A stretch of DNA of 64,000 nt. Origin: Psammoneis japonica (lineage: Eukaryota). The translations under genes were made by a program, and so were the position numbers. The stretch is from the NCBI GenBank assembly GCA_008632985.1, contig QPGO01000260.1:1-64000 (forward strand). The letters are read 5' to 3'. This document shows positions 22,501 through 59,950 of this stretch, piece after piece; positions within the stretch are counted from its first letter, which is position 1, and every line of letters begins with the position of its first letter. The notes under the pieces were generated by a model. That model ran no database searches, was not told where the DNA came from, and was given only the letters and a program-made list of their open reading frames with translations.

Positions 22501-22511
22501 AGTGAGTCTCC

Positions 22512-34059: not shown

Positions 34060-34990
34060 AGCCATTTAGAGAATGACTTCATTCCAAACATTTGTTCTGT
34101 TCTGAATCTGTTGGCACCCACACTTCTCAAAAAGAGCATGGAAGCCATGCAGACATGGAGCAATGTTGAGAACATTTTGAATCAAATCCAGCTCATTGTG
34201 GGCAATGGACAAGCACAAGTGGATCTTGCAGGCCAGCATGTTGTTGAAGGCCCACTCAGTGGGCCCATCATGAGGCCTCCTGTGTGGGGCCCTGGGGAGA
34301 ACCCTGTGACCTGCATGGTGGACTTGGCAGACAACCGCTTCCTCCTTGTGTGCTGTTGGATTGTCGTGCATGACAGTTCATTGTGGCTCATTGGGATGGA
34401 AGTTCCCGACAACATCAAACTCAAGAAAGTCTCCACAGATTTCAGCTGCAGATCCACGTCACTTGACACTCCACACCATCTCCCAGGATGCTGAGCAGAA
34501 CCTTGGACATGTGGCGGTGGGTTTGGGTGGCTCAAGATCTTTCAAAGCCACGCTGATCTCAGGCTCTGAAAATGTGTGGCCATCATCAGAATTCATTGTG
34601 ACGCAGACAATGCACACATTTGTCAATGCTTCTGGGCAGGCGAGTTTGAAAAGTGCCAAAATTGGTCCATGGTGACTGTTCAAATTTTGGTTTTTGTGTG
34701 CCTCTGTTGCCAGTCATCTAGAGCACCACAACCTGCTCTCATCATTCCACTGCCTGACACTTCAAATCATGTGTGCTGGGACGGGCAAGTCATTTTGTTG
34801 CAGTGATCCACCAGCATTTGCCGCTTGCTCAGCGGATGTCCTCGAGATCTGCCACAGCTCAGATGTGAAGGCATTGGCTCGTGTCCCTGGGAACCTGCTC
34901 TGTGCATCAGACTCCATGTTGATGCCTCCATTCTGCAACATTGTCTTCACAAAAGTTCATTGTGAAGTGGGTTGAGCAATGTGAGTGGCG
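34060..34990 (-). pseudogene. Relic IS630/Tc1-like transposase inserted in the array
   Basis: HAGHRVLPRAPHRRPHDGPTEWAFN resembles the GH...RAPY.P.DGPIE..FN catalytic-E region. The sequence is unique within the array. Confidence 0.55.
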
Positions 34991-37900: not shown

Positions 37901-40900
37901 CTTTGACAAAGAAACTCAGCAGTTGTTGTTGGTTTCGCAACGCCAGTGTTCGGGCTCAATTTTTTCCCTTTTTTGGGTTCAAACTTTCAATTTCAACCAA
38001 CTTGGGTTTTAAATTTGGATTTTGAACCATCTGGGTCTAAAATTGCAATTTTTGACCAGCCCAAAAAAAGGGAGGCACACGCTTCTCAAAAGGTGAGCTT
38101 TCCACGTCCTTTTCAGAGCAGTGAGGTGAGCAAAAGAGGAGCTGTCAAAAGATGCAGACAATGCCATTTTGGCGCATTGTCGTCTGGTGGTGTCATCATC
38201 ATTCGTGATGATGAAGTGCCGTTCTTTCTGGCTTCATGCTGTGTCCTTGCAGAAATGCACGTGCTTGGCTCTTGGACAGCTTCTGTGCAAAAAGCACACC
38301 AGGCAATCTCTGGACCACCCTCTGGAAGGTCAAACAGCTCCAAACAAAGCTTTGACAAAGAAACTTGGCAGTTGTTGTCAACTTTGCCGTGCTGGTGTTT
38401 GGGTTCAAAATTTTTCCATTTTTGGGCTCAAACTTTTAACTTTGACCAACTCGGGTTTTAAGTTTGGATTTTGGCCCCAGTTGGGTCCAAAATTGCAACT
38501 TTTGACCCACCCCAAAGAAAGGAAGCATGCACTTCTCACGAGGCAGCAGGCAACCTGAACACATTTCCCGTCAGCTTGAGCTGCACTTGAGTGGGCGTGC
38601 CACAGTTCTTGGCCCATTTGTTTTTTTGTGGTTGCTTCCTGCACATTTTGTCCTGTGGAACAGTTTTTGGGAGTGCTTTCTGGGTTGCAATGCAAAACAA
38701 CTTGCAAAATGACATGGACAATGGCATTTCACCAGCTTCAAAAATGCAGTTGTTTCTGAGGCACTTTGTGGTGTGCTCACAACAGAACATCACACATTGC
38801 GGCACAAGGTGTGTCACAAGCTTGAGAGTGCACAGGTTTGCATGGGCCGCTGATGGTGAAAAATTGTGTGTTGAAGGTTTGCACTGACAATGTTGCTTTT
38901 GTTTTGTCATGACCAACCTCTCACGAGGCATCCCAGAGACACTTTCTCTCATCAAGAATGTCATCTCTGCAGTGCAATGGCCACGACAATTCAAGAACAA
39001 GGCCAACTCACAAACACAGCATCAGGAAGAGTTCACAACAAACATGGTGACTTGTCGCCATGATGTCTTGAGCTGAACAAGCTCTCAAGAGCTCAAGCAC
39101 ATCATCGCACAGTTTTGACAATTGTGACAGCTCCAATGGCGCAGACTGCTTCTTTTGGCTGTGCGGCAACTCACAACCCAGGAATGCCAAATGGCCCCAT
39201 TTGTCAGCAAGCCAATGCAACAAATTTGGAGAGTGAGAGGCAAGACAGATGCACAGTTGTGTCAAGTCTCACAAGCAGCTCAAGAGTGCAAGCCAACAAG
39301 AGTTGTCAGCTTTGCAACTCAGCAAGTGAGTGCTGAGTGAAACTTGTGGGGGCATCACGCCTCCATTGTTGCTCCAGAGCAAACAGCAAATGGCATTGAT
39401 TTGGCTGACACAGCCAATGTGCACGTGTGCCTTGACAGTCTGTTGTGCTGCATTCTGAGATTGTGGAACAAAAGGAGGCACTTGCACTTGCATCACTCCA
39501 TCACAAAAGAAATGCACAAGCTTTCCCTGGCCCTTGTTTCAGCAGTTGGGCAAGCAAAAGAGGAGCTGTTGAAAGATGTGGAAGACGCCGTTTTAATGCA
39601 TTGCTGTCTGGTGGTGTCATCATTCATGATGAAGTGCTGTGCTTTCTGGCTTCATGTTGCATCTGTGCCGGAATGCACAGTGTTGGCTCTTGGGCAGCTT
39701 CTGTGCAAAAAGTGCACAAGGGGCAATCTCTGGACCACCCTCTCAGGGGTCACATGGCTCTGAACACAGCTTTGACAAAGAAACTTGGCAGTTGTTGTCA
39801 ACTTTGCAGTGTCGGTGCTCAGGTTTGAATTTTTTCCTTTTTTGGGTTCAAACTTTCAATTTTAACCAACTTGGGTTTTGAGTTTGGATTTTGAACCCAA
39901 CTGGGTCCAAAATTTCAGTGCGCGTGCACCTTGACAATCTGTTGTGCTGCATTCTGAGATTGTGGAATGAAAAGAAGTGCTTGCGCTTGCATTGCTCCAT
40001 CATGACAGAAATGTGTCAGCTCTCCCTGGCACTTTTGGAGCAATCGGGCAAGTGAAAGAGGGCAAGTGCAAGAGGAGCTGTCAAAAGACATGGGCAACAT
40101 CATTTTGATGCATTGTCATCTGGCGGTGTTGAAATCATTTATGATGAAGTTCCATGCTTTCTGGCTTTGCACTGCATCTGTGCGGGAATGTGCGTGCTTG
40201 GCTTTTGGATGTTCTCCACACAAAAAGTGCACCAGGTCATCTCTTGACTGCTTTCTTGAAGGTCAAACAGCCCCAAACAAAGCTTTGACAAAGCAACTTG
40301 TCTGGTGTTGTCAGTTTTGCAGTGTCGGTGTTTGGGTTTGAAATTTTTCCTTTTTTGGGTTCAACCTGTCAATTTTAACCAACTTGGGTTTAAAGCCTGA
40401 ATTTTGAACCCAGTTGGGTCCAAAATTGCAACTTTTGACCCCCCCAAAAAAGGGAGGCACACACTTCTCACAAGGTGGCAGGCGACCTGTGCAAATTTCC
40501 TGTCAGATTGAGCTGTGCTTGAGTGTGTGTGCCACATCTCTCGGTGCACTCATTTTCTTTGTGGCCTGGTGCAGTCCATTTCTGTGTGAACTCAGCACAT
40601 TTTGCCCTTCTGAGCAGTTTTTGAGAGTGTTTTCTGGGCCGTGATGCAAAACAACACACAAAATGACATGGACAGCGGTGTTTTGCCAACTTCCAAAATG
40701 CAGTTGTTTCTGAGGCACTTTGTGGTGTGCTCTCAATGGAGCACAACATGCTGCGGCATTGGGTGTGTGACAAGCTTGAGAGCACACAGGTTTGCATGGG
40801 CAGCCGATGGTGAAAAATCATGTCAAAGGTTTGCGCTGACAATGTCGCTTCTGTTTTGTCACAACCAACCTCTCGCGAGGCATCCCAGAGACACTCTCTC

Positions 40901-42886
40901 TCATCAAGAATGTCCTTTTTTCAGCGCAGCATCCATGACAATTCAAGAACAAGGCCAAGTCACAGACGCGGCATTGCAAAGAGTTCACAACAAACATGGC
41001 AACTTGGCGCCATTGTGATGTCTTGAGCTGGGCAAGCTCTCAAGAGCTCAAGCACATCATTGCACAGTTTTGACAACAGCTCTCCCCACCCACACATGGC
41101 AATGCAGAGTTTGACACAGCAGACCAGCACACCATGGCAGCTCCAGTGGCGCAGATTGCTTCTTTTGGCTGTGCAGCAACTGACAACCCAGAAACCAGAA
41201 ATGTGTGGCTCATTTGCCCCATTTGTCAGCAAGCCAATGCAACAAATTTGGAGAGCAAAGGACAAGAAAGATGCGCAGTTGTGTCAAGTCTCACAAGCAG
41301 CTCAAAGGGGCAAGTGAACAAGAGTTGTCAGCTTTGCAACTCAGCAAGTGAGTGTTGAGCACAACTTGTGGGGGCATCACATCTCCATTGTTGCCCCAGA
41401 GCAAACAGCAAATGGCGCTGATTTGGCTGATGCAGCCAGCGTGCATGCGGGCCTTGACAATCTGTTGTGCTGCATTCTGAGATTGTGGAATGAAAAGAAG
41501 TGCTTGTGCTTGCATTGCTCCATCATGAAAGAAATGTGTCAGCTTTCTCTGGCCCTTTTGGAGCAATCGGGTGAGCAAAAGAGGGCAAGTGAAAGAGGAG
41601 CTTTCGAAAGATGTGGGCAACATCATTTTGATGCATTGTCGTCTGGTGGTGTCGACGTCATTCATGATGAAGTTCCGCGCTTTCTGGCTTTGCACTGCAT
41701 CTGTGTGGGAATGTGCGTGCTTGGCTCTTGGATGGTCTCCACACAAAAAGTGCACCAGGTGATCTCTGGGCTGCTTTCTTGAAGGTCAAACAGCTCCAAA
41801 CAAAGCTTTGACAAAGTGCCCTGTGCATGCACCAGGTGCTGCAAAAGAAGATGTGTTGCGACTTTGTCGTTGTGAAAATTGTGAGCTGGTTTAGAGCAGA
41901 GAAAGTGGGATCGTGTGAACAGGGAATCTTGCCAAATCCCTGTTTGTTTGCATTTGGATCGTGTCAAATCGATTGTGCGTTCGCATTGTGGATCGTGCGA
42001 ATCAAGCCATCACGTGCTGTGCACGAGTGATGTCATCGTGTGGAATCACGCTGCCATCGTGGGCCAGACGATGGGCCAGTGTGCTTCACACAGATGCTCT
42101 CTTAGCATCCTTCTGGAATTGCCTGAGACCTGGAGCCACACAATGCTGCGTTGCCATGCACAAGAGGCTTGTGCACGGTCTTGCCGTGCTGTCCAGTGGA
42201 GAGGCACACTGCAAAAGAAACTTGGCTGTTGTTGTCAATTTTGCAGCGTCAGTGTTCGGGTTTGAATCATTTCCTTTTTTGGGCTCAACCTGTCAATTTC
42301 AACCAACTTGGGTTTAAAGCTTGGATTTTGAACCCAGTTGGGTTGAAAATTGCAATTTTTGACCCACCCCAAAAAAGGGAGGCACACACTTCTCACAAGG
42401 TGGCAGGCGACCTGCGCACATTTCCTGTCAGATTGAACTGTGCTTGAGTGGGTGCGCCACAGCTCTTGGTCCGCTCATTTTCTGCGCAGCCTGGCACAGC
42501 CCAAATCTGTGTGAACTCAGCACATTTTGCCCTGCAGAGTGGTTTTTGTGAGTGCTTTCTGAGCTGTGATGCAAAACAACACGCAAAATGACATGGACAA
42601 TGGTGTTTTGCCAATTTCAAAAATGCGGTTGTTTCTGAGGTGCTCTGCAGTGCACTTTCAATGGAACATCGCATGTCATGGCACAAGGCATGTGACAAGC
42701 TTGAGAGCACACAGGTTCACATGGGTGGCTGATGGTGAAAAAGCACGCTGAAGGTTCACATTGACAACATCACTTTTGCTGTGTTGCAGCCAACCTCGTG
42801 CAGATGCGCTCCAGCCCTGGGTGGGACTCCATGTGATGTTGGGCCATGGAACTCTGTGTGCGAGCTCTGCAGTGTGAGAATTTAAT

Positions 42887-45800
42887 TGATGGATGCGCTT
42901 GTCTTCAACATCAAACAAATGGCCAAGTTTGTGGCACAATTGCACCTTTTGCCACTTGACATTTTTGCAAATGTGCCTGTCCTGTGCAGTTCCCAAGACA
43001 TTGCAGAATGTCAAAAGTTGTCAGACAGATCACTCAACAAGTGCACTGTAAAATGACACAACATGTCGCCAAAATCATGTAAAAATCCACGTGCCTGACA
43101 TGCAACATGATTCAAAAACTGTCGTTGTCACAGTTCAGCAGCACGAGGTCCCATTTTGCAGTGCACTTGTTGAGCAATCCTTCCAACAACTCTTGACATT
43201 TTTTGTTTCAGCACAATTCTGCAATGTCTTGAGAGTCGTGCAGGGCAGGTGCACTTGCAAAAACGTCGAGTGGCAAGAGGCACAATTTCACCACAAACTT
43301 GGCCGTTTGTTTGATGTTGAAGACAGGTGCATCCATTGACCAACTTCTAGAACACGGAGCCCCACCTGGGGCTGGAATGCATCCATGGTGCATCAATGAG
43401 TGCCAAATTGATGCTCTGTTGTCTGGCATTTTTTAAGTTGCAACAGGCCTGCACTGCAGTCTGCGCATGTTCTTTGTCATTGTTGTCTTCTTTGCTGTCT
43501 TCATCTTCTTCCTTGTTGCCTCTGTTGCTTGGTTCATCCGTTTTCTCTTCATGGTCCTCATTGTCACCAGAAAGCTCTGTTGTTGCTTGCATTCTCATCT
43601 CCACCCCCACTGGCTTTTCAGTGGTTTGGCTCTTTTTTCATTTCCCTCACTCTCCTTTTTCTTTCCATCAGCGTGCCATGTGTCGAGCTGCACACCCGGC
43701 TCACTTGCCCTGTCATCCTTCAACTCCTCAAGCAGGGCAGTGAATCGCTTCATTCCACCATCCTTCCAAGAGTTGCGCTGATGCAGTGGGTCTGTGTGCA
43801 AGGGCGCCAGTTTTGTTTCCTTCTCCTCCTCTTCACTCTCTTCTTCCTTTCCCTCCAGCTTGGATTTGTGCTCCCAAACCTTCCAGCAATTTTCCAATGC
43901 CAACAGTGCCAGTGCCTTGTTGCTTGCCATGGCCAGCTCCATGACCTTTGTGTTGCCCGACTCCACCACCCTTCTCCACATGGGACGCACGGCTGTTTTG
44001 ACAACAAATTTTGTAGCGCGAAGGTCCTGTGCTCAGTCGTCAATCAGAGATTTGAGATTTTTGCACTTTAAAAAATGGAAACAAGGCTTGCCGGAGACAG
44101 GGTCATTGAGGTCCTCACCGGCAATGATCTGATGCACAAACTCAACCATTGAAGCCATTGGCGAAATGTTCTGTGTCGTCAAAATTGACATCATCAGGAA
44201 AGACAAAGGAGGGGTTGGGGTCGGCCTCCTCCGCTGATGGGGCAAAGTTGTCATTGACCACTGTGGCCAGCCATCTGATTGCGCGGAACATGCAGAAAGT
44301 GAGTGAATCACAACATCGCACACTCTGGTCAAATTGATTTTGGGGAGAGGGTGTGCTGTTGAGAAATGTGCAGGAAATGGTGCATGCAGAAAAAAGACTG
44401 AGAACACAGCAGAGAAACTGTCACAGAGTTCTGGAAAAAGGTGTGAAGCAACAAGGAAATGCGTGCACACACAGAGGTGACTGGGCAGATGTGGACAGCA
44501 TTGTGTGCTGTGACACATGAGGGGGGTAAAAACAAAAAAGCACAAACCAACACAAAAGCCAAATTGTCAAAGGCATGGAGCATGGGTTGTCACCACCCAA
44601 AGCTTTGGTCACAAAACATTTGCAAATGTGAGTTGCTTGAGCATGAGCAATCAGCACAAATGGGCAAAATAAAATCCTCATGAAAAGGTCAAACACCTTG
44701 CATTGTGAAAACAACATTCAAGCACTGGCACCACAATCAAAAGAATGACACCAACAAAATGCAACTGCGTGGCAAAAACCAATGAAAGTGATGGCCGCCA
44801 CATTGTGGGCTCTGATGTGCTTGGCTTTTGGCAGCTTCTGCACAAAAAGCATGCCAGGCAATCTCTGGACTGCCACCTCAAATGTCAAATGGCTCCAAAC
44901 AAAGCTTTGACAAAGAATCTTGGCAGTTGTTGTTGATTTCGCAGCACAAGTGCTCAGGTTCAAATTTTTCCTTTTTTGGGCTCAAACTTTCAATTTTGAC
45001 CAACACGGGTTTCAAGTTTGACTTTTGAACCCAGTTGGGTCCAAAATTGCAGTTTTTGACCTGCCCCGAAAAAAGGGGGGCCTGCACTTCTCAAGAGGTG
45101 GCAGGTGACCTGCTCACACATCCAGCCAGCTTCAACTGCACTTGAGCAGCGTCACTTCTGTTGCTTTGCGACTGACCTCATGCACTGCCATTCATGCTGT
45201 GTGTTTTGTTGAGGCTTTGTGTGTTTGCAGCAACCCAGCTTGCACGTGCTTTCCCTTTTCACATTGCTCTTTTGTTCTGCAGGCTCTGCGTTGTCACGCG
45301 GTGTCCCAGAGACTCTTTTTCTTGTCAAGAATGTCATTTCTGCTGTGCAATGGCCACGACAATTCAAAAACAAATGCGGCGGCTTGGCACTGTGATGTCT
45401 CAAACTGAGCAAGCTCTCAAGAGCTCAAACACATCATTGCACAGTTTTGACAACAGCTCTTCCCACCTCCACATGGCAATGCAGAGTTTGACTCAGCAGA
45501 CCAGCACATCATGGTGGCTTCAATGGTGTGGATCACTTTGTTTGGCTGCACAGAAGCTTGCATTCCAGAAACATGTGACTTGTTTGCCCCACTTGTCAGC
45601 AAGCCAGCACAACAAATTTAGAGGGTGAAGGACAAGACAAATGATGTGCAGTTGTGTCAAGTCTCAGAAGTGGCTCAAGAGTGCAAGCCAACAAGAATCG
45701 CTGGCTTCTTTGCAAATGGCAAGCAAGTGCTGAGTGCAATTTTTGGGGGCACCACGTCTCCATTGTTCTTCTGGAGCAAACAGCAAATGGTGTTGATTTG

Positions 45801-48033
45801 GCTGATGCAGCCAACGTGCACGTGCACCTTGACAATCTGTCGTGCTGCATTCTGACATTTTGGCAAAGAAAAGGAAGCTCGAGGAACTCTGGAGTGGGTG
45901 ACCAAGACACACCCCAGCTCCAGGTGGGACCTTGTTCCGCTGAACTGTGACATCAATGGTTTTTTGGATTACACAGCATGTCGTGCACGCAGAATTGCGC
46001 AAGACTTTTGTGAAATTTTGTGTCATTTTGTGGTGCACTTGTTGAGCGATCCATCCAACAACTTTTGACATTTTTGTCATGCAGCGCGATTCTGCAATGT
46101 CTTGAGAATCACACGGGGCAGGCGCATCTGCAAAAACGTTGAGTGGCAAGAGGGTCAATTGTGCCACAAACTTGGCTGTTCATTTGATGTTGAAGATGAA
46201 TGTGTCTGTTGATTAAATTCTTACACTGCGGAGCTCGCATGCAGAACTCTGCAGGCCCGATGTCACACGGAGTCCCGCCCGTGCACCCCAATTTGTTCTC
46301 TCCACAAACTGCTTTTTGGATGCACACAGTGCAATCATGCTCCTAAGCTTGGGCCCAAATGGCTCCACTCTGAAGCCATTGGTGAGATGTTCTGTGTTGT
46401 TGAAATTGACATCATCAGGAAAGACAAAGGAGGGGTCAGGGTCGACCTCCTCCACTTGTGGGGCAAAGTCATTGACCGGCCACCATGGCCAGTTGTCTGT
46501 TGGCAGAACATGCAGAAAGTGCATGAATCACAACAGCCCACACTCTGGTCAAATTGATTTTGGGGAGACGGCGTGCTTTTGTGAAATGTGCAGGAAATGG
46601 CACGTGCAGAAAAAACACTGAGAACACAGAAAACGCACCAACAGAGAGCTCCGGAAACAAGTGTGGCGCAACAAGGAAATGTGCGCACACATGGAGGTGA
46701 CTGGGCAGACATGGGCAGCAGCATGTGGTGTGACACACAAGGGGGTGAAAACAAAAAAGCACAAACCAGCTTGAAAGCCAAATTGTCAAAGGCGTGGAGC
46801 ATGGGTTGTCACGACCCAAAGCTTTTTTGACCACATGACACTTGCAAATGTGAGTTGCTTGAGCATGAACAACCAACACAAATGGACAAAAAAAATCTGC
46901 GCGAAAAGGTCAAACACCTTGCGCCATGAAAAGCTTCTTTGACCACATTGCATTTGCAAATGTGAGTTGCTCGAGCATGAACAACCAACGCAAATGGGCA
47001 AAAAAAATCTGTGCAAAAAGGTCAAACACCTTGTGCCATGAAAAGAACGTTCAAGTGTTGGCATCACAGTCAAAAGAATGACACAAACAAAATGCAATGG
47101 CGCAGCAAAAATCAATGAAAGTGATTGCCGCCACATTGCAGGCTCTCATGTGCTTGGCTTTTGGGCAGCTTCTGTGCAAAAAGCATGCCGGGCAATCTCT
47201 GGACCACCGCCTCAAAGGTCAAATGGCTTCGAACAAAGCTTTGACAAAGAAACTTGGCAGCTGCTGTTGGTTTTGCAGCGTCAGTGCTCAGGTTCAAATT
47301 TTTCCTTTTTTGGGTTCAAACTTTCAATTTCAACCAACTTGGGTTTCAAGTTTGAATTTTGAACCCAGTTGGGTCCAAAATTGCAGTTTTTGACCCGCCC
47401 CGAAAAAGGAAGGCACACACTTCTCACAAGGCAGCAGGCGACCTGTGCACATTTCCTGTCAGTTTCAGCTGCACTTGAGCAGACACACCAGACAATCTTT
47501 GGACCACCACCTCAAAGGTCACATGGCTCCAAACAAAGCTTTGACAAAGAAACTTGGCAGTTGTTGTTGATTTCGCAGCATCAGTGCTCGGGTTCAATTT
47601 TTTCCCTTTTTGGGCTCAAACTTTCAATTTCAACCAACTTGGGTTTTAAGTTTGAATTTTGAACCCAGCTGGGTCCAAAACAGCAGTTTTCAACCCAACC
47701 CAAAGCTTGAAAAGGTCAAACACCTTGCACTGTGAAAACAATGTTCAAGTGCTGGCATCACAGTCAAATGAATGACACAAACAAAATGCAGCGGCATGGC
47801 AAAAACCAACAAAAGTGATTGCTGCCACATTGCAAGCTCTGATGTGCGTGGCTTTTGGGCAGTTTCTGTGCAAAAAGCATGCCAGGCAATCTCTGGACCA
47901 CCACCACCTCAAAGGGCAAATGGCTCAAAACAAAGCTTTGACAAAGAAGCTTGGCAGTTGCTGTTGGTTTTGCAGCATCAGAGCTCAGGTTCAAATTTTT
48001 CCTTTTTTGGGTTCAAACTTTCAATTTCAACCC
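42887..48033 (+). repeat. Segmental duplication copy 1 (~5.1 kb)
   Basis: Collinear with 54806-59950, for example ORF pairs 43595/55521, 45664/57583 and 47369/59288. Differences are mostly CG versus TG/CA. Confidence 0.95.
43390..44150 (-). pseudogene. Captured fragment of a transposon-associated gene (second copy ~55310-56080; partial copies ~36770-37100 and ~27050-27170)
   Basis: ALALLALENCW..W...PLHTD...SWKDGGMKRF..L......DR followed by an acidic tail. ENCW and PLHT are consistent with mutated ENYW and PLYT. Confidence 0.5.
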
Positions 48034-48272
48034 AAGCAAATCCAGCTGCCGAATGGCTCAGCTGCTCACAGCACTGGTGTGACAACAATCTGATGATCCA
48101 AAGATGCTCTCAGGCCTGTTGCAACTGCTCGTAACAAGTGAGCGCCATTGGAGGGAAAACCAACGCTTCCCTCCGATGACACGTCACAACGGTTGGCTCA
48201 GCACCAGCCGTTGCCAACAGCACTCTAACAACAGCACTCTAACTAAATCCGATGCATCGGATTTCTTTCGGT
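48034..48272 (-). repeat. 3' LTR, truncated at its distal end
   Basis: Aligns with 54430-54640. Preceded on the minus strand by a purine-rich caaggggac (PPT-like) at ~48272-48281. Confidence 0.8.
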
Positions 48273-48438
48273 CCCCTTGAAATGTTTCTAACAAGCCAAG
48301 GGCGTGCTTGACAGGCACAATTCAACCAATGCAATCAACCACATTGACACTCCGTGCTGGCCATGGTGTAAACCCTCACTGGGGAAGAAAATCACCACCG
48401 ACCCGATTCCCAAAATCCAAACCCCATTTGCCGCCAAT

Positions 48439-51400
48439 TCAACAAGTGAACTTGTCCAACAGGAAATTGCGACGAATCGAAGTCATGACCTTCGTGAACA
48501 AATCCGCGAGGTTAGTTTCCGCATCCTCCTTTGCCAGGCGAACAGTCCCCGCAGCAACAGCTTCCCCATTGCGATGGCATGCAATGGAGTGATGCTTCTT
48601 CTTGAGAGTAGACTCCGGGATGGAGCAATTCTTGTACACTGCTTCATTGTCACAGAACACGTTCGTAGAACCTTCAACAGGAACTCCAAACATTCGAAGC
48701 TTGCACCTCAGACCTTCAACAAGTTCCACCGCGACCTTGAGTGCCACGATCTTGGCGCCAAAAGTGCCAGTCTCCACGGTGTTCTGTCTCTTCGAATGCC
48801 AGATGGGAATGTCAGAATGCCTGCATGACTGCGGCGAGTTGATGCGTCACCAGCATGGTTGGCATCCACGAAACAATGAGTGGACACAACGTTGCCTCGA
48901 GGTGGTGGCATGTTGGGGGGAATCGCCTCTTGCGCGTCTCGGCAGAAGTCGAACCAATCGCACTCCTTGAACCTAGACTCGTCGATGACCGGATGCGTGG
49001 GATCGAACGCCACCCGGCGCTTTGGGACCTGTTTGAGGTGTGCAAAGATGTGCAACACCTGTTCCAAGTGACCAATGCGCGGCAAGGCAAGGTGAGCCGA
49101 CACATTTGACACTTCCAAAATGACATCGACCCTGCCCAATTCCACGGCCCAAATCAAAACGCCAATCAGCTCTTGGCAGCAGTTGAGGCCTTCTGCATCC
49201 AGCTCGCCCGAAGCATCCAACTCCGGCTTGCATCCGCTGCTCAAAGGTGTGCATGCTTTACTCGGCAGCCGTTTTCCTTCCTTGGCCAATTTGTCCTCAA
49301 CATTCCGGACCGCCGCCTTGCAGCAATCTTCTGCTGACATCGTCCAGCAGGTGGCACCGTCAGCAAGGTCCATCTTCGACAATTTGGCGCCCAAGTGGGA
49401 TTCGGGTTCCGCTGCTTTATTGTCTTTGAGCTTGAACTTCGACTTGATGCCATCCACAGTCTTCATCGGCTCATGACCAATCGACAGCAAGTCGTCGACG
49501 TACACCAAGATGTGCTCGTAGCACTCGAATCCGTCTGGCTTCACTGCTGGCCTCATCCAAACGTCGGGATCAGCCTTGCCAGGCTTGCATCCTAGATCAT
49601 AAAGCGTCTCCGCCAGGAAGGCCCTGAATGCCGCACCGGAGCTCTTCAATCCATAGAGTGCCCTGACTACAATCACAATCTCACCGCGTTCCGCGCCAAA
49701 CTCTTCACCGGCACGAGTCCAAATTTTCTCTCGGCATGGCGCTGTCAAGCAGGCATTCTGGATGTCGCAGGCAAAGACTTGCAAGTCATCAAGCGTGGCA
49801 AGTGTAAGGGCAATCCTTGACGAATCCCTGGAAACAACTGAGGAGCAGGCAATGGCAGTTGGGGTGTCGGTCATGTGACCACCCGCAACCATCCTGCTCT
49901 TGTGCCGAAAGTTCTCTCCCAACTTGATGTCAAAAATCATGTGACAATCGATTTGTTGGCACCCAGGAGGCAGTTCCGTTTCGTCCCCCTCGAGCTTGTC
50001 GAACGCAACTCGAACATTCTTCATTTCCAAGCAAATGGCGTCATGCCACAAGGTGTTGCCGTTCGCATGATCGAGCTCCAGTGCCTCCTTCACAGTCTTG
50101 GGAATTTGTGTGCCAAACCCACGGGTTCTCAACCAATGCTTCGACTTGGCCTTCGCAACAGAACGCTTGCGGGTCCTCATTGCGTGCGGAACCCACCAAG
50201 CAAACGCCGGCTCCTTCGAGATCTTGCGTTGGATGGCGAACTCGGCGACCTGGACAGGGAATCCTTCCTTCGCGTCCTTCAGGTCAACCCAAGCAGTGCT
50301 GCCATCCTTCCATTGGAATGAGAGTTCCCATCCTTTCGTGGTCCTGCGCCGCCTCTTGTTGCCTTGCTCAGTTTCAAAGAAATCGGATTCCGGGACGTCC
50401 CCATTCGTGCGGAAGTCCACAATCTCGTCGAACAGAACATGCCGATTTCCGTCCTCGTCAATCTGTGCGAACATGTTCATGGCAACAGAGTTAGCTGAAA
50501 GTGCTGCAGTGTGACCATCGGGGTGCTCCACCTGATGCATTCGAGTGTCCAGGATTGGGTTGTCGTTGGCTGTCCCAATGGGAATGCCACTCGCATCCCT
50601 CAACCTCTTCGTTGCACGCGCGAACTCGGGACCATCATCATCTCTCGGCAAAGCCAATTCCACATTGAGATGACCCCAATCCGCCGCTTCCGGGGAGGCT
50701 TCCTCATCTTTCTTGTCGTCGTCCTTGTTTGACACATCTTCAGAACCAATGACGCGATCGCACTCGTCGAGGAATTCGTCGTCGTACCCAAGACAGTCCT
50801 TCCAGTCTTCGGGGCTGATCCTGCGCTCTTCGTCTTCGGGAAACTCTTGGTCACGAAGTCTGCGCTGGATCTCCTCGTCAAAAGCCTTGAACCGATCTTG
50901 ATTCTCTTGAGTGCCAGCTTCCAAGTTGGTGACTCGCTGAACAGATGTTCGCGATGTGACACGACCGGTTTGCGTCAACACGTAATGTGACATTAGACTG
51001 CCAATCCGGTGGGACACTCCGAGCCACCTGCCAAGCTTCTGGTCACCAAGACCAGCATTCTCCCTGCACCAAACCCAATCGTAGAATCCGAAGTCAAGGC
51101 ACTCTGAGATGTCAACAGTTTCGCCAAGCATTTCTTCCAGAGGAACGCCAGCGTCCAAATGGNNNNNNNNNNNNNNNNNNNNNNNNNNNNNNNNNNNNNN
51201 NNNNNNNNNNNNNNNNNNNNNNNNNNNNNNNNNNNNNNNNNNNNNNNNNNNNNNNNNNNNNNNNNNNNNNNNNNNNNNNNNNNNNNNNNNNNNNNNNNNN
51301 NNNNNNNNNNNNNNNNNNNNNNNNNNNNNNNNNNNNNNNNNNNNNNNNNNNNNNNNNNNNNNNNNNNNNNNNNNNNNNNNNNNNNNNNNNNNNNNNNNNN

Positions 51401-52690
51401 NNNNNNNNNNNNNNNNNNNNNNNNNNNNNNNNNNNNNNNNNNNNNNNNNNNNNNNNNNNNNNNNNNNNNNNNNNNNNNNNNNNNNNNNNNNNNNNNNNNN
51501 NNNNNNNNNNNNNNNNNNNNNNNNNNNNNNNNNNNNNNNNNNNNNNNNNNNNNNNNNNNNNNNNNNNNNNNNNNNNNNNNNNNNNNNNNNNNNNNNNNNN
51601 NNNNNNNNNNNNNNNNNNNNNNNNNNNNNNNNNNNNNNNNNNNNNNNNNNNNNNNNNNNNNGCTTCTGGGTGGTCTTCTTCAATGTTGATGCCGCTTGTT
51701 TCAATCCAATGCCCCAGCGCTCGCTCAAGTCAACAGCAGTGACAGAACTGCGCCGTTCCTTGGACATGAAAGTCTTCGGGGATGGTGCGTCTTCAAGTTC
51801 CAAGCCGATCGTCTCAGTGGCCGCGATCTGAACATCCGCTTCCACCTGGACTGACGCTGTCAATCTTGATTGAAGTTGGTCCACACCACAGACAAGTCTC
51901 CTGTCACAACAGTCCCCGGTCTGAGGGTTGCCACAATCAGGATCCTGACCAAACGCGTGGCTGGGGCTTGACCGAACACTTGCGACCGACCGAATCAACT
52001 CCATTTCCTCCTCCACAGAACGTCAAGGTCTGGACTGCTTAAACTTGACGTGTGTGGATCCCAAGCTTGTTGGGAGGTCAACTGGATGTGTGGGCACTCT
52101 TGGAGCTCCCTGTCAGTGGGGGTCCGAGCAGCCGCAACGACACCAGTTCCCATCAACTCAAGAGGGCAGCACAAATCCCTTGTCCTCCACAAGGACATCC
52201 AACGGCGACTCGGAACAGGGGTCATCCTGAACCGTGATGCCGAAATGCCTCATCTGATTCGGGTTGAGGAGAGAATTCTCCATGGAATCTGCCATCCAAA
52301 GCCCCTCATGGAAGCCAGGACACCGTTGCTCCCGTCGCCGGTGAGGTCCACGCAGTGGCCGCCGATGCGATTGGGACACTCTTGATGGCTTCGCATCCCT
52401 CGTCACAAGGATGCGTGCATTCTCTTCCAGTGTAACCCAAGAGGGTAAAGTTCGAACTAAAAACAGCAGTGTCAGCATGTGAGTCCAATTCTAGTCGTCC
52501 ATGCTTTACCTGATCGTCTGTTCGGACGTGAGTGGCACGCGTGTCAGTCCGTGCCGCAGAGACTCGTCGTGTAGAAGCTGCAATTTCACAAATGCAACGA
52601 CAGCCCCCATGAACCAACGTTTCTTTCAAACGACACGGCTGGCCCCCGCCCCAATGAAGCAGCCACAATGCAACTGGATGAGGCTGCAAA
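48439..52690 (-). pseudogene. Copia pol (protease-integrase-RT-RNase H) with frameshifts and Tyr>Cys/His substitutions
   Basis: ORFs 52306-52689, 52158-52478, 48708-52016 and 48439-48777 carry the motifs listed for the element. Confidence 0.9.
51163..51661. other. Assembly gap (N run)
   Basis: Run of N characters. Confidence 1.
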
Positions 52691-52709
52691 GCAGGGTCCA
52701 GCTCAGGAG

Positions 52710-54133
52710 TCAGCTGCGTCGCTGACGCTCCTGGCGTCCCCCAAATGCGTCTCCGGCATTGTTGCCGCCTTGACCGCCAGTTCCTGTGCCAACGTTTCCG
52801 GAATCGGTGCCGGCAGTGGTCTCCAAGGAAGAAATGGTGTGGCTTGCTTGCTCAAGCTGGGACGTCAGCTTCCGATTCTTCTTTTCAAGCAATCTGACGG
52901 ATGCAGCGCGGCGCTTTGGGTCACCCGGCCTCTTCTTGAGTCCCAAACACACACGCTCATCCATGACCTTCTTCTTGTCTTCCTTGCTCAATTGATGCCA
53001 ATTTTTATGAAATCCGGTGTCAATGGACCCATCTTCTTTGCAAATGGAATCACCTTCCTTGCTGACGCCGGACGCAACAGAGGAAATCGCACGACGGTGC
53101 GCAACTGTTTCCGGGAGAGTGGCGACTTTAGCGGCAAGATGGTTGCACGCTGCAGCAAAACTGATCCCTCCTCCAAACTCATTCTGCGCCTTCAGGGTCT
53201 CTGCTGCGTTCTGCAACTGCTGGTGTTGCACCTTGTCGAACAGCAATCGCAGCTTCTGAGCCTCCGTCTTGGGTTCATCATTCTCTTCGAAAATGTTGGG
53301 CATCTCCTGAAGCTTGTTCACGAACGTTTCGAACGTCATGGAGCGTTCACTCCTGCAGTGCAGAGTGTTTTCCAAACGCTCAGCTTCCGAGATGCGACGG
53401 GCAGCATTGCCCTCGCCCTGATGGTGGTTCTCCAAAGATTCGCAGCAGAGACGACCGTTCTGGCTGTTGTGGTGCTCTTTGATCCACTGCTCGCTTGGGG
53501 CACCTTTCGTGAACAAAACGATTGGCTGGCTGGCGGCACGAGAATCAGCTTCAAAAAGCTGGACCCTCGAGTGGAGCGCATGCAACTGACTTCTGCATGA
53601 AAGTCTCATGCCCTTCAGGCTCGGGCTCCTCGTTCTCGCGTGTGACACAAATCAATGGAACGCCGTCGACTCCCAGCATCGTGCCAAGCATGTTCTTGAA
53701 AGCGGTGCTCCATTTTGCCCAGACCTTTTCACTCTCCAAGAGTCCAGGGGATGCCTCACGAGCAACAGACTTTGGATTGATCCCTCATCTGGCTGCGAAC
53801 ATCGGCCCTCGACAACGCAGCAGATAGTGCATCGAGAAAACGCGCCTGATCCAAACCGTCGATGGCAGGATTTTCACCAACGCGTTGGAAGTCATGCACC
53901 CAATGAACAAGGGACTTGAGGCGACGGGTGCGAGCCAATGCAAAGTGGAAACGCCCCTCAGCAGCAGTCCTCCTCGAGCAAGACTGCGCGAGCGTGTCGA
54001 TGTCCGATTCCTTCACATCGACGACATCATCAAACGCAGCGATGTCAGTCATGATCGCGTCACGCTGAGCAGGCAACTGGAAACCGATCCAAGCAAGGGC
54101 CGTTTCCATCGGGTTCGGGGGGTTTGCCGCCAT
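52710..54133 (-). pseudogene. Copia gag, disrupted
   Basis: MAANPPNPMETAL.WIGF..., L.SLVHWV.DF.R, G..GVPL.CV.R (expected YV.R), LHCRSERSM.FE.F (expected Y). Confidence 0.8.
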
Positions 54134-54214
54134 GGCGAAACTTGAGTCATCACAGCATCATGAGACAAAGCAGTTGTGTCAGAAGAAGCACATCAAAACT
54201 TTGACGTTCACAAA

Positions 54215-54640
54215 ATCGCATTGACGACACGCGCAGGCCTCAAGAGTGCGGAGATGTGGCCTTGTCTCCCACTGCATTGCGCATGCACTGATGCGAAGGC
54301 ATCACTCAACGGCGAACACCCTCAGGTTGGTCGGCATTCGTTGTCAAAACCGTGCCATCGTGACACAACCGTCACAATCACGTTGTTCATCACCAAACCG
54401 CGGAGTGCGGACTGTGGCTCTGACAAAGCAAGCAAATCCAGCTGCCGAGTGGCTCAGCCACTCACAGCACTGGTGTGATGACAATCCAACAATCCAAAGA
54501 CACTCTTGGGTCTGTTGCAACTGCTCGCAACAAGTGAGCGCCATTGGAGGGAAAAACAATGCTTCCCTCCGATGACATGTCACAACGGTTGACTCAGCAC
54601 CAGCCGTTGCCAACAGCACTCTAACTAAATCCGACACATC
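54215..54640 (-). repeat. 5' LTR, lacking about 15 terminal bases; inner boundary approximate
   Basis: Shares agcaaatccagctgccga...cagcactctaactaaatccga with 48034-48255. Confidence 0.75.
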
Positions 54641-54808
54641 CATTTGCCCTTTTGAGGTGGTGGTGGTCCAGAGATTGCCTGGCATGCTTTTTGCACAGAA
54701 ACTGCCCCAAAAGCCATGCACATCAGAGCTTGCAATGTGGCAGCAATCACTTTCGTTGGTTTTTGCCATGCCGCTGCATTTTGTTTGTGTCATTCATTTG
54801 ACTGTGAT
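54641..54808 (-). repeat. ~165-bp inverted copy of 47757-47922 (and of ~59675-59842)
   Basis: ccatttgcccttttgaggtggtggtggtccagag...catttgactgtgatg is the reverse complement of catcacagtcaaatg...ccacctcaaagggcaaatgg. Confidence 0.9.
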
Positions 54809-57800
54809 GGATGCGCTTGTCTTCAACATCAAACAAATGGCCAAGTTTGTGGCACAATTGCACCTTTTGCCACTTGACGTTTTTGCAAATGTGCCTGTCC
54901 TGTGCAGTTCTCAAGACATTGCAGAATGTCAAAAGTTGTCAGACAGATCACTCAACAAGTGCACTGTAAAATGACACAACATGTCGCCAAAATCATGTGG
55001 AAATCCACGTGCCTGACATGCAACATGATTCAAAAACTGTCGTTGTCACAGTTCAGCAGCGCAAGGTCCCATTTTGCAGTGCACTTGCTGAGCAATCCTT
55101 CCAACAACTCTTGACATTTTTTGTTTCAGCGCAATTCTGCAATGTCTTGAGAGTCGTGCAGGGCAGGTGCACTTGCAAAAATGTCGAGTGGCAAGAGGCA
55201 CAATTTCACCACAAACTTGGCCATTTGTTTGATGTTGAAGACGGGTGCATCCATTGACCAACTTCTAGCACTGCAGAACACAGAGCCCCGCCTGGGGCTG
55301 GAATGCATCCATGGTGCATCAATGAGTGCCAAATTGATGCTCTGTTGTCTGGCGTTTTTTAAGTTGCAACAGGCCTGCACTGCAGTCTGCACATGTTCTT
55401 TGTCATTGTTGTCTTCTTTGCTGTCTTCATCTTCTTCCTTGTTGCCTCTGTTGCTTGGTTCATCCGTTTTCTCTTCATGGTCCTCATTGTCACCAGAAAG
55501 CTCTGTTGTTGCTTGCATTCTCATCTCCACCCCCGCTGGCTTTTCAGTGGTTTGGCTCTTTTTTCATTTCCCTCACTCTCCTTTTTCTTTCCATCAGCGT
55601 GCCATGTGTTGAGCTGCACACCCGGCTCACTTGCCCTGTCATCCTTCAACTCCTCAAGCAGGGCAGTGAATCGCTTCATTCCACCATCCTTCCAAGAGTC
55701 GCGCTGATGCAGTGGGTCTGTGTGCAAGGGCGCCAGTTTTGTTTCCTTCTCCTCCTCTTCACTCTCTTCTTCCTTTCCCTCCAGCTTGGATTTGTGCTCC
55801 CAAACCTTCCAGCAATTTTCCAATGCCAACAGCGCCAGTGCCTTGTTGCTTGCCATGGCCAGCTCCATGACCTTTGTGTTGCCCGACTCCACCACCCTTC
55901 TCCACATGGGATGCACGGCTGTTTTGACAACAAATTTTGTAGCGCGAAGGTCCTGTGCTCAGTCGTCAATCAGAGATTTGAGATTTTTGCACTCAAAAAA
56001 ATGGAAACAAGGCTTGCCGGAGACAGGGTCATTGAGGTCCTCACTGGCAATGATCTGATGCACAAACTCAACCATTGAAGCCATTGGCGAAATGTTCTGT
56101 GTCATCAAAATTGACATCATCAGGAAAGACAAAGGAGGGGTTGGGGTTGGCCTCCTCCGCTGATGGGGCACGTTGATCACTGTGGCCAGCCATCTGTTTG
56201 CGCGGAACATGCAGAAAGTGAGCAAATCACAACATCGCACACTCTGGTCAAGTTGATTTTGGGGAGAGGGTGTGCTGTTGAGAAATGTGCAGGAAATGGT
56301 GTGTGCAGAAAAAAGACTGAGAACACAGCAGAGAAACTGTCACAGAGTTCTGGAAAAAGGTGCGAAGCAACAAGGAAATGCGTGCACACACAGAGGTGAC
56401 TGGGCAGATGTGGACAGCATTGTGTGCTGTGACACATGAGGGGGGCAAAAACAAAAAAGCACAAACCAACACAAAAGCCAAATTGTCAAAGGCATGGAGC
56501 ATGGGTTGTCACCACCCAAAGCTTTGGTCACAAAACATTTGCAAATGTGAGTTGCTTGAGCATGAGCAATCAGCACAAATGGGCAAAATAAAATCCTCAT
56601 GAAAAGGTCAAACACCTTGCATTGTGAAAACAACATTCAAGCACTGGCGCCACAATCAAAAGAATGACACCAACAAAATGCAGCTGCGCGGCAAAAGCCA
56701 ATGAAAGTGATGGCCGCCACATTGTGGGCTCTGATGTGCTTGGCTTTTGGGCAGCTTCTGCGCAAAAAGCGTGCCAGGCAATCTCTGGACTGCCACCTCA
56801 AATGTCAAATGGCTCCAAACAAAGCTTTGACAAAGAATCTTGGCAGTTGTTGTTGATTTCACAGCACAAGTGCTCAGGTTCAAATTTTTCCTTTTTTGGG
56901 CTCAAACTTTCAATTTTGACCAACACGGGTTTGAGTTTGACTTTTGAACCCAATTGGGTCCAAAATTGCAGTTTTTGACCTGCCCCCAAAAAAGGGGGGC
57001 CTGCACTTCTCATGAGGTGGCAGGTGACCTGCTCACACATTGAGTCAGCTTCAACTGCACTTGAGCAACATCACTTCTGTTGCTTTGTGACTGACCTCAT
57101 GCACTGCCATTCATGCTGTGTATTTTGTTGAGGCTTTGTGTGTTTGCAGCAACTCAGCTTGCACGTGCTTTCCCTTTTCACATTGCTCTTTTGTTCTGCA
57201 GGCTCTGTGTTGTCGCGCGGTGTCCCAGAGACTCTTTTTCTTGTCAAGAATGTCATTTCTGCTGTGCAATGGCCATGACAATTCAAAAACAAATGCGGCG
57301 GCTTGGTGCTGTGATGTCTCAAACTGAGCAAGCTCTCAAGAGCTCAAACACATCATTGCACAGTTTTGACAACAGCTCTTCCCACCTCCACATGGCAATG
57401 CAGAGTTTGACTCAGCAGACCAGTGCATCATGGTGGCTTCAATGGTGTGGATCATTCTGTTTGGCTGCACAGCAGCTTGCAACCCAGAAACATGTGACTT
57501 GTTTGCCCCACTTGTCAGCAAGCCAGCACAACAAATTTAGAGGGTGAAGGACAAGACAAATGATGTGCAGTTGTGTCAAGTCTCAGAAGTGGCTCAAGAG
57601 TGCAAGCCAACAAGAATCGCTGGCTTCTTTGCAAATGGCAAGCAAGTGCTGAGTGCAATTTTTGGGGGCACCACGTCTCCATTGTTCTTCTGGAGCAAAC
57701 AGCAAATGGTGTTGATTTGGCTGATGCAGCCAACTTGCACGTGCACCTTGACAATCTGTCGTGCTGCATTCTGACATTTTGGCAAAGAAAAGGAAGCTCG

Positions 57801-59950
57801 AGGAACTCTGGGGTGGGTGACCAAGACACACCCCAGCTCCAGGTGGGACCTTGTTCCACTGAACTGTGACATCAATGGTTTTTTGGATCACACAGCATGT
57901 CGTGCACGCAGAATTGCACAAGACTTTTGTGAAATTTTGTGTCATTTTGTGGTGCACTTGTTGAGCAATCCATCCAACAACTTTTGACATTTTTGTCATG
58001 CAGCGCGATTCTGCAATGTCTTGAGAATCACACGGGGCAGGCGCATCTGCAAAAACATTGAGTGGCAAGAGGGTCAATTGTGCCACAAACTTGGCTGTTC
58101 ATTTGATGTTGAAGATGAATGTGTCTGTTGATTAAATTCTTACACTGCGGAGCTCGCACGCAGAACTCTGCAGGCCCGATGTCACACGGAGTCCCGCCGG
58201 TGCACCCCAATTTGTTCTCTCCACAAACTGCTTTTTGGATGCACACAGTGCAATCATGCTCCTGAACTTGGGCCCAAATGGCTCCACTCTGAAGCCATTG
58301 GTGAGATGTTCTGTGTTGTTGAAATTGACATCATCAGGAAAGACAAAGGAGGGGTCAGGGTCAACCTCCTCCACTTGTGGGGCAAAGTCATTGACCGGCC
58401 ACCATGGCCAGTTGTCTGTTGGCGGAACATGCAGAAAGTGCATGAATCACAACAGCCCACACTCTGGTCAAATTGATTTTGGGGAGACGGCGTGCTTTTG
58501 TGAAATGTGCAGGAAATGGCATGTGCAGAAAAAACACTGAGAACACAGAAAACGCACCAACAGAGAGCTCCAGAAACAAGTGTGGCGCGACAAGGAAATG
58601 TGCGCACACATGGAGGTGACTGGGCAGACATGGGCAGCAGCATGTGGTGTGACACACAAGGGGGTGAAAACAAAAAAGCACAAACCAGCTTGAAAGCCAA
58701 ATTGTCAAAGGCATGGAGCATGGGTTGTCACGACCCAAAGCTTCTTTGACCACATGACACTTGCAAATGTGAGTTGCTTGAGCATGAACAACCAACACAA
58801 ATGGACAAAAAAAATCTGTGCCAAAAGGTCAAACACCTTGCGCCATGAAAAGCTTCTTTGACCACATTGCATTTGCAAATGTGAGTTGCTTGAGCATGAA
58901 CAACCAACGCAAATGGGCAAAAAAAATCTGTGCGAAAAGGTCAAACACCTTGTGCCATGAAAAGAACGTTCAAGTGTTGGCATCACAGTCAAAAGAATGA
59001 CACAAACAAAATGCAATGGCACAGCAAAAATCAATGAAAGTGATTGCCGCCAAATTGCAGGCTCTCATGTGCTTGGCTTTTGGGCAGCTTCTGTGCAAAA
59101 AGCATGCCGGGCAATCTCTGGACCACCGCCTCAAAGGTCAAATGGCTTCAAACAAAGCTTTGACAAAGAAACTTGGCAGCTGCTGTTGGTTTTGCAGCGT
59201 CAGTGCTCGGATTCAAATTTTTCCTTTTTTGGGTTCAAACTTTCAATTTCAACCAACTTGGGTTTCAAGCTTGAATTTTGAACCCAGTTGGGTCCAAAAT
59301 TGCAGTTTTTGACCCGCCCCGAAAAAGGAAGGCACACACTTCTCACGAGGCAGCAGGCGACCTGTGCACATTTCCTGTCAGTTTCAGCTGCACTTGAGCA
59401 GACACACCAGACAATCTTTGGACCACCGCCTCAAAGGTCACATGGCTCCAAACAAAGCTTTGACAAAGAAACTTGGCAGTTGTTGTTCATTTCGCAGCGT
59501 CAGTGCTCGGGTTCAATTTCTTCCCTTTTTGGGCTCAAACTTTCAATTTCAACCAACTTGGGTTTTAAGTTTGAATTTTGAACCCAGCTGGGTCCAAAAC
59601 AGCAGCTTTCAACCCAACCCAAAGCTTGAAAAGGTCAAACACCTTGCACTGTGAAAACAATGTTCAAGTGCTGGCATCACAGTCAAATGAATGACACAAA
59701 CAAAATGCAGCGGCATGGCAAAAACCAATGAAAGTGATTGCTGCCACATTGCAAGCTCTGATGTGCGTGGCTTTTGGGCAGTTTCTGTGCAAAAAGCATG
59801 CCAGGCAATCTCTGGACCACCACCACCTCAAAGGGCAAATGGCTCAAAACAAAGCTTTGACAAAGAAACTTGGCAGTTGCTGTTGGTTTTGCAGCATCAG
59901 AGCTCAGGTTCAAATTTTTTCTTTTTTGGGTTCAAACTTTCAATTTCAAC
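54806..59950 (+). repeat. Segmental duplication copy 2
   Basis: Collinear with 42887-48033. Confidence 0.95.

Follow-up and report, generated by a model that had tools for sequence, protein, structure and literature searches.

How can a genome lose nearly all of its TpA dinucleotides over tens of kilobases of mobile DNA while the adjoining genes keep theirs? The question is raised by a 64,000-nucleotide stretch of the diatom Psammoneis japonica (GenBank assembly GCA_008632985.1, contig QPGO01000260.1, positions 1 to 64,000 of the forward strand; hereafter the window), in which a Copia-type retrotransposon, a probable DNA-transposon relic and a large repeat array lie next to ordinary genes. 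We consider it likely that this diatom genome has a local DNA hypermutation process that converts TpA to TpG or CpA in integrated transposable elements and repeats. The signature of the process, its direction, its timing after integration, its dependence on sequence context and its locality can be read in the window itself. We infer that the process is enzymatic and serves genome defence.

The TpA-depleted domain and the direction of change

The depleted domain, its border, its components and the ordinary region beside it are located as follows (LTR, long terminal repeat; ORF, open reading frame).

1..16690, no strand: ordinary gene region with normal TpA and CpG content, used as one baseline
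16691..17270, no strand: domain border; normal TA density ends at 16,690, with no further TA before 17,271
16696..64000, no strand: TpA-depleted, CpA/TpG-enriched domain of at least 47.3 kb, continuing past the right end of the window
16.7-27 kb: Cys/His-rich long ORFs without Pfam matches
19156..22272, plus strand: probable Plavaka/CACTA-type DNA-transposon relic (ORFs 19156-20601 and 20683-22272)
27001..48032, no strand: diverged dispersed/nested repeat array, units about 1.7-2.3 kb apart; the most depleted part
48,033-54,640, minus strand: Copia-type LTR retrotransposon with RVT_2 and two LTRs
48033..48258, minus strand: Copia LTR (3' in element orientation), from self-BLAST and alignment, with a 14-bp tandem duplication
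48442..51161, minus strand: Copia pol; ORF 48711-51161 carries RVT_2, and 48442-48846 encodes the C-terminal part in a different frame
51163..51661, no strand: assembly gap inside the Copia element (499 N)
51662..54428, minus strand: upstream part of the element (gag, protease and integrase side; ORF pieces 51662-52022, 52309-52851 and 52713-53651)
54429..54640, minus strand: second Copia LTR, from self-BLAST and alignment
54641..64000, no strand: repeat array, continued; 54805-59951 is a 97% copy of 42887-48032

The domain is set off from its flank by a single sharp edge. In 1-kb intervals of positions 1-17,000, the observed/expected ratio (O/E) of TpA is 0.38-0.76. From 17,001 to 64,000 it is mostly 0.00-0.08 and the CA/TG O/E is 1.25-1.98, with less depleted intervals at 18,001-19,000 (TpA O/E 0.22), 48,001-50,000 (0.17-0.19) and 52,001-53,000 (0.14). 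Most intervals of the domain hold 0-5 TAs per kb, compared with 21-54 on the left. The symmetrised values of the flank (1-16,690) are 0.57 for TA, 0.92 for CG and 1.12 for CA/TG, whereas the three kinds of sequence that make up the domain, the Cys/His-rich ORFs (16.7-27 kb), the repeat array and the Copia element, all fall to a TA O/E of 0.03-0.11. Mobile DNA is thus affected and the neighbouring host DNA is spared, with position 16,690 as the limit. The loss is restricted to the TpA dinucleotide: CA/TG alone rises, AA, AT, AC, AG, GA and CC are almost unmoved, and AA, AT, GA and AC show no comparable depletion. The GC content of the domain is unchanged or slightly raised, and no new stop codons appear.

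CpG is also lost in the domain, presumably by decay of 5-methylcytosine (5mC). This decay is much slower than the TpA process, since the Copia element has a CpG O/E of 0.85 with a TA O/E of 0.11, and the repeat array has 0.31 with 0.03. Between the two duplicated segments that flank the Copia element, where TA is already exhausted, CpG changes account for 51 of the 86 single differences.

The direction of change was derived from tyrosine codons. Tyr is always encoded by TAY, so conserved Tyr columns in protein alignments give the ancestral state. Twenty-four Copia columns hold Tyr in at least 70% of 60 homologues; the window reads Cys at 11 of these, His at 6, Tyr at 4, Phe at 2 and Trp at 1, whereas of 513 columns with other conserved residues 428 are unchanged (Fisher p = 7e-12). 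With the threshold set at 60% or more and two further well-aligned pieces added, the resulting 30 columns read Cys 16, His 7, Tyr 5 and Phe 2. Eleven columns of the gag-side pieces 52713-53651 and 53759-54157, which match the consensus at 27% and 37%, were left out of this count; they read K, H, F, F, G, L, R, S, S, F and Q. Of 32 conserved-Tyr columns, 81-100% still hold Tyr in each of 120 homologues, none of which has more than 1 Cys or 2 His there; in the same comparison the window keeps Tyr at 4 of 22. The relic ORF 20683-22272 repeats the pattern, with Cys at 4, His at 2 and Tyr at 1 of 7 conserved Tyr columns, and its overall content is 0.38% Tyr, 5.7% Cys and 5.9% His, compared with 3.7%, 1.9% and 3.9% in relatives. 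Eighty related Copia loci from metagenomes have a TA O/E of 0.46-0.86 (median 0.70) versus 0.11 in the window copy. These data support A:T>G:C transitions at TpA on either strand, and the transitions are near-exclusive: Tyr became Cys or His in 23 of the 30 Copia columns and in 6 of the 7 relic columns.

The two LTRs of the Copia element date these changes relative to insertion. They differ at 21 columns, which comprise seven adjacent TG/CA doublets, one TA/CA pair, two CG/TG pairs and four other single changes. A TG/CA doublet between LTRs is the expected trace of two independent hits on an ancestral TA, one per strand; CpG in the element has hardly decayed, which makes CG an unlikely ancestor. 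Since LTRs are identical at insertion and now differ by such doublets, it was integrated DNA that underwent the changes. In a public DNA run of this organism the Copia family proves to be highly repeated (640 matching contigs), whereas a further run, X2, gave no contig matching the element. Other copies of the family differ from the window copy at 178 places, and transitions make up 158 of these. Of the 40 differing places that were viewed, 7 are TG/CA doublets in one or the other order, and at 4 the TA persists in other copies. Doublets between LTRs or between copies are uninformative on the preferred direction of change, being visible only where the copies diverged in opposite ways. Likewise, the 470 adjacent CA/TG doublets within the array (high-scoring segment pairs of 80-88% identity) are not assignable to ancestral TA or CG, given that CpG decays too. 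The LTR differences and the copy differences, together with the fact that the DNA-transposon relic and the non-coding repeats are also affected, establish that the process acts in chromosomal DNA, after integration and on both strands.

Graded context around the lost TpA

An earlier note on this DNA had observed that the TAs surviving in the depleted region are mostly YTAR and least often RTAY (Y, pyrimidine; R, purine). Counting the tetramers inside and outside the domain bears this out. The 153 TAs that survive between 17,000 and 64,000 comprise 97 YTAR, 26 YTAY, 24 RTAR and 6 RTAY, compared with 94, 144, 179 and 185 among the 602 TAs of positions 1-16,500. With the Copia element set aside, the difference between domain and outside has Fisher p = 8e-31 for YTAR and 1e-12 for RTAY. 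When homologous repeat positions are collapsed, 128 groups remain (YTAR 76, the two one-target classes 46, RTAY 6), and the contrast holds (p = 3e-22 and 2e-11). The whole Copia element carries a weaker form of the pattern, with 14 YTAR and 3 RTAY among 36 survivors (p = 0.002 and 0.004). The YTAR survivor pattern is a property of the domain and is only incipient in the younger Copia element.

All 16 NTAN counts are described by a multiplicative model with four parameters, in which the survival of a tetramer is the product over the +1 base of the A on each strand. The fit gives a chi-square of 9.5 (about 12 degrees of freedom), compared with 372 for uniform survival. For the old part of the domain the model yields a survival of 0.80 with A at +1, 0.36 with G, 0.09 with C and 0.05 with T. 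The corresponding cumulative hazards are 2.9 for T, 2.4 for C, 1.0 for G and 0.23 for A, and those of the Copia element are 2.3-2.6 for T, 1.0-1.1 for C and 0.4-0.6 for G and A, all under an assumed ancestral composition (that of the flank genes or of related elements) and with back-mutation and saturation ignored. The order T > C > G > A recurs when 16.7-27 kb and the repeat array are fitted apart, and with either the flank or the 80 Copia loci as baseline. TTAA is far better protected than CTAG (p = 8e-4). The +1 base thus grades the rate, TAT > TAC > TAG >= TAA, as a gradient and not as a strict TAY rule.

The motif that the earlier note had put forward, T[A>G]Y with YTAR protected, is retained in part. 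The process favours a pyrimidine at +1 and is slowest at YTAR, and TAR and TAY differ in rate as the hazards show; AA, with an O/E of 1.21-1.35 as against 0.03-0.11 for TA, is not depleted. Protection of YTAR is not absolute, and these sites still mutate both ways. Two YTAR sites in the LTRs have changed in both copies, and where one repeat copy has YTAR the others show CA 79 times and TG 66 times.

Survivor classes alone leave two readings on a par when A is the mutated base: under T-A-Y and R-T-A contexts alike, RTAY should be the first class to go and YTAR the last. The conserved Tyr codons are informative here, for a YTAY codon is expected to become Cys under T-A-Y and His under R-T-A. Taking both elements together, codons preceded by a pyrimidine (YTAY) became Cys in 9 cases and His in 3 and were kept in 5, and those preceded by a purine became Cys in 11 and His in 6 and were kept in 1. 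A purine two bases 5' of the mutated A was considered as the determinant and rejected on the 9 Cys and 3 His of the YTAY codons (p = 4e-4); an even split of these twelve is not rejected (p = 0.07). The codon lists of the earlier note, in which Tyr>Cys follows any base and Tyr>His mostly a purine (after GAG, GCA, AAG, ATG and TCA, with TCC and GGT as exceptions), were reproduced from the homologue alignment. The products of the change agree with T-A-Y as well. Relative to the flank genes, the domain has gained 14.7 YTGY, 15.2 RTGY, 3.8 RTGR and 5.5 YTGR per kb, which is near the expectation for T[A>G]Y loss plus context-free CpG decay, the prediction being our own arithmetic. The Copia element compared with its 80 related loci is in agreement (YTGY +5.4/kb, RTGR -0.8/kb), but the total TG gain there is half of the TA loss. 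Among repeat paralogues, RTAR sites read CA 3 times and TG never, as predicted, but YTAY sites go the other way (see below); the copies are non-independent, and we give this comparison no weight in either direction.

Several observations weigh against this account of the context. Within 48,439-51,160, where the motif was first proposed, only 5 of 19 survivors are YTAR (RTAR 8, RTAY 3, YTAY 3), a weak bias. TGT has changed by -0.3/kb in the Copia element relative to its related loci despite the largest loss being at TAT, a comparison blurred by the higher AT content of the relatives. Taken singly, neither the excess of purines before Tyr>His codons (5 of 7) nor the better retention of Tyr in YTAY (5 of 17) than in RTAY (1 of 18; p = 0.09) reaches significance. 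At YTAY sites, the repeat paralogues read CA 8 times and TG 4 times, contrary to the prediction, from 6 sites in non-independent copies. The assumptions stated with the hazards belong here too.

The asymmetry between strands among survivors (YTAY versus RTAR) tracks the coding strand, and the related Copia loci have 29.6% YTAY and 17.6% RTAR there. A transcription-coupled process, considered as the source of this asymmetry, is not supported; codon structure accounts for it. A local strand asymmetry of survivors also occurs in a patch at 18,000-18,800, where the 14 surviving TAs are all YTAN and none is RTAN.

The elements and their neighbourhood

The retrotransposon is classed as a Ty1/Copia LTR element of the diatom CoDi-like kind by its RVT_2 domain, its direct LTRs and its Copia-type relatives. 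Its pol matches PF07727 (RVT_2, E = 4e-13) and has homologues of 55-64% identity. Relatives number 1595, the best being 64% identical and the single named one coming from Fragilaria crotonensis. Piece 52309-52851 reaches 63% to the homologue consensus, and the gag pieces align poorly. The frame 48708-52022 is open for 1104 codons, of which 166 are Ns across the gap. The pol frame switches at 48,708-48,846, where ORFs 48711-51161 and 48442-48846 overlap; this is one frameshift in an element that is otherwise open. The 14-bp tandem duplication, at 48,215-48,228, is present in one LTR and absent from the other.

The ORFs of 19156-22272 have 280 relatives at E<=1e-3 (best E = 1e-79). In P0368, a full-length relative, PF18759 (Plavaka) scores slightly over its cut-off, and an Atlas lead (0.83) points the same way; on this one relative and the lead, the region is probably a hypermutated DNA transposon of the Plavaka/CACTA kind. 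Two further Cys/His-rich ORFs without Pfam matches, 22,515-23,900 (minus strand, 462 aa) and 25,182-26,687 (minus strand, 502 aa), are probably genes of additional hypermutated elements, since they are longer than chance allows at this density of TGA. Stop codons in the domain are TGA only, TAA and TAG having been lost, and ORFs of 100-500 aa run in several frames on both strands; 52,575-53,600 (plus) and 52,710-53,651 (minus) are an example of overlap between opposite strands.

Tandem Repeats Finder reports three short arrays only, and the array itself consists of dispersed and nested repeats with long periods. A direct duplication of 5.15 kb (42,887-48,032 and 54,805-59,951; about 97% identical, offset 11,919 bp) encloses exactly the Copia element plus about 165 bp, and 54,640-54,809 is an inverted 97.6% match of 47,756-47,923. 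The duplication may represent a higher-order repeat, or else reflect a rearrangement, or a join made in assembly, at the site of the element.

Two genes are recognised in the ordinary flank, which holds further ORFs as well.

1471-3046, minus strand: protein kinase gene (Pfam Pkinase)
4451-6207, plus strand: RRS1, ribosome-biogenesis gene (Pfam RRS1)

The named relatives of RRS1 are diatoms only. Raphid pennates come first, with Epithemia clementina (69%) followed by Cylindrotheca, Nitzschia and Bacillariaceae (63-66%), and centric diatoms are lower. Three consecutive ORFs of 471, 187 and 165 aa (14,291-16,561, minus strand), which lack Pfam matches, abut the border on its side of normal TA content; a host gene and an unmutated mobile element are both conceivable. 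A Pfam scan of the 18 long ORFs of 14,291-28,386 gave no match.

Chemistry, rival explanations and related systems

The chemistry is most likely deamination of adenine to hypoxanthine, which pairs with C, carried out in DNA by a deaminase of the cytidine deaminase (CDA) fold of the TadA/ADAT2 type. The candidate deaminase would be recruited to silenced or mobile DNA, as proposed for the chlorarachniophyte Bigelowiella natans. It would work element by element or domain by domain, with a sharp edge against neighbouring genes, would outrun the decay of methylated CpG by far, and would act at a rate graded by the +1 base (T > C > G >= A), such that RTAY goes first and TTAA last. The sharp domain edge suggests, as a conjecture, that targets are chosen element by element or through homology and not by the spread of chromatin. 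Because TA>TG/CA creates no stop codon and removes TAA and TAG, dead elements keep long open frames; elements would be inactivated by missense change, Tyr to Cys or His.

TadA and ADAT2/3 convert A to inosine with U or T immediately 5' (U33-A34), their natural substrate being a tRNA loop, and the +1 base of the TadA site is C (UACG in tRNA-Arg). TadA, ADAT and the base editors derived from TadA share with the present signature the A>I(G) change and the 5' T. The TadA-like preference seen by the earlier note survives with respect to the 5' T. A pyrimidine is favoured at +1, but with T >= C, most clearly in the Copia hazards (2.3-2.6 versus 1.0-1.1), and the likeness to UAC is only partial. The order at +1, T >= C > G >= A, counts against a TadA-type enzyme; the substrate differs too, being double-stranded chromosomal DNA over tens of kb. 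Three more points tell against the proposed mechanism. No mutator enzyme was seen, the Pfam-scanned ORFs of the window being without a deaminase match and no search of the genome or proteome having been made. The attacked base, A or the T paired with it, is indistinguishable from sequence. Moreover, the evidence is a fossil trace in one assembly window and is silent on present-day activity.

The strongest competitor, to which we give a small but real chance, keeps the targeted process and moves its chemistry to thymine: the T of 5'-R-T-A-3' would be modified or excised and resolved as T>C, for example through 5-hydroxymethyluracil made by a TET/JBP-type enzyme or through an aberrant glycosylase with repair. 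Being strand-symmetric, the signature reads just as well as R[T>C]A, the order at -1 then being A > G > C > T. We know of no enzyme with this context and outcome. The sole published proposal for the signature, made for B. natans, is adenine deamination.

ADAR-like A-to-I editing of retrotransposon transcripts, fixed by reverse transcription, is highly improbable. It would share with the signature the A>G change, repeats as targets and a 5' U preference, described as typical of ADARs in bioRxiv 10.64898/2026.01.13.699255, and the pol element is indeed a retrotransposon. However, ADARs act on RNA, and the LTRs diverged by TA-derived changes after integration, which already contradicts such editing and rules it out as the source; the DNA-transposon relic, which it cannot explain either, and the non-coding repeats are equally affected, both strands are hit, and a single sharp domain edge spans many elements. 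A review (PMC10661471) gives 5'-UAG, with G as the preferred 3' neighbour, as the hot spot of wild-type ADAR2, whereas TAG is slow here. Neither a change before integration nor a preference for a 3' G is found in the window.

A Y-family polymerase of the polymerase eta type, making WA>WG errors (W, A or T) during repair of heterochromatin, is just as improbable. Polymerase eta does give A>G after T, and the earlier note had named a TA-biased translesion polymerase among possible mutators. The A>G changes at AA as well as TA that mark it are absent, which already contradicts it: AA is not depleted (O/E 1.21-1.35 versus 1.14 outside) and AG is not enriched (0.83-0.97 versus 1.03).

An artefact of sequencing or assembly, in which a base modification at heterochromatic TA makes each strand read as TG and the consensus settles on TG or CA, is likewise very doubtful. 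Modified motifs cause systematic miscalls in some long-read assemblies, and TG on one copy with CA on another could arise in this way. Against this, the 31-letter-word contigs of the public DNA run carry the TG/CA states (147 of the 640 are at least 99% alike) and the longest contig of the run, 315 kb, needs accurate reads, a support that is non-independent inasmuch as the run, whose platform is unrecorded, may be the window's own source; the N gap, lying within a repeat, points to a short-read scaffold. Finally, the notion that no mutator exists, with elements TA-poor from the start or TA selected against, is next to untenable, for although TA is under-represented in many genomes and stands at 0.57 in the flank genes, the 80 related Copia loci have a TA O/E of 0.46-0.86, the 120 homologues keep their Tyr, the loss of 25 of 30 conserved Tyr is no selected state for a polymerase, and the LTRs diverged in place.

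Turning back to the proposed adenine-directed process, its closest counterpart is that of B. natans. The preprint of Mettrop et al. (bioRxiv 10.64898/2026.01.13.699255) reports that A>G/T>C mutations arise de novo in the integrated DNA of a giant virus and a virophage, exclusively at TpA and at a rate of about 6e-7 per site per generation; it also describes TpA-depleted clusters enriched in transposon domains and proposes an ADAT2 homologue as the candidate enzyme. Both cases show a nearly pure A>G/T>C change at TpA, giving TpG or CpA, in foreign-derived regions beside normally mutating DNA. They differ in host, B. natans belonging to the Rhizaria and the diatom to the Stramenopiles, and in the kind of evidence, which is de novo mutation in accumulation lines there and a fossil trace here. 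They also differ in depth (TA O/E 0.03 over tens of kb, compared with a Rho of 0.45 given for the B. natans viral region), and the main text of that preprint gives no context beyond TpA, whereas a graded +1 context is seen here. The window thus carries the same signature in a second lineage, much further advanced and on transposons and repeats; what is new is the context beyond TpA, together with the proof from the LTRs that the process acts once the element has integrated. A search for TpA depletion in diatoms found nothing relevant within the limited collection of literature covered.

Repeat-induced point mutation (RIP) of ascomycetes resembles this process in its in-place DNA transitions in repeats and transposons, its dinucleotide preference and its sharp edges against unique DNA. 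RIP changes C to T mainly at CpA, makes TpA, lowers GC and creates stop codons. The present process runs the opposite way, with TpA lost, CpA/TpG gained, frames open and GC unchanged or slightly raised; C>T at CpA, TpA excess and new stops are not found in the window. APOBEC3 activity and CpG decay from 5mC are likewise deamination transitions concentrated in mobile elements, but they are C>T.

A broader and more speculative reading, which we hold only tentatively and think less probable than its negation, is that diatoms and chlorarachniophytes have in common, through descent within Stramenopiles, Alveolata and Rhizaria (SAR) or through convergence, a natural enzyme system that edits adenine in chromosomal double-stranded DNA with an intrinsic T-A-Y (ATA/TAT-centred) specificity, each integrated transposon or virus being targeted as a separate element. 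Such a 'reverse RIP' would disable invaders through the loss of Tyr codons and of TATA-like and AATAAA-like signals without making stops, and would amount to an adenine editor of DNA found in nature. For base editing, too, the enzyme would be interesting, provided that it is a deaminase with double-stranded DNA as its substrate.

The signature has practical consequences as well. With TGA as the only stop, hypermutated DNA carries long ORFs in all six phases, rich in Cys and His and poor in Tyr, which gene finders would call as false genes and which would weaken homology searches, and LTR-based dating of TpA-hypermutated elements would be badly inflated. The graded +1 context provides a fingerprint for comparison with the B. 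natans mutations and with candidate enzymes. If the process indeed operates in a second, distant algal lineage, TpA hypermutation would turn from a single-species curiosity into a candidate for a widespread eukaryotic genome defence, the mirror of fungal RIP.

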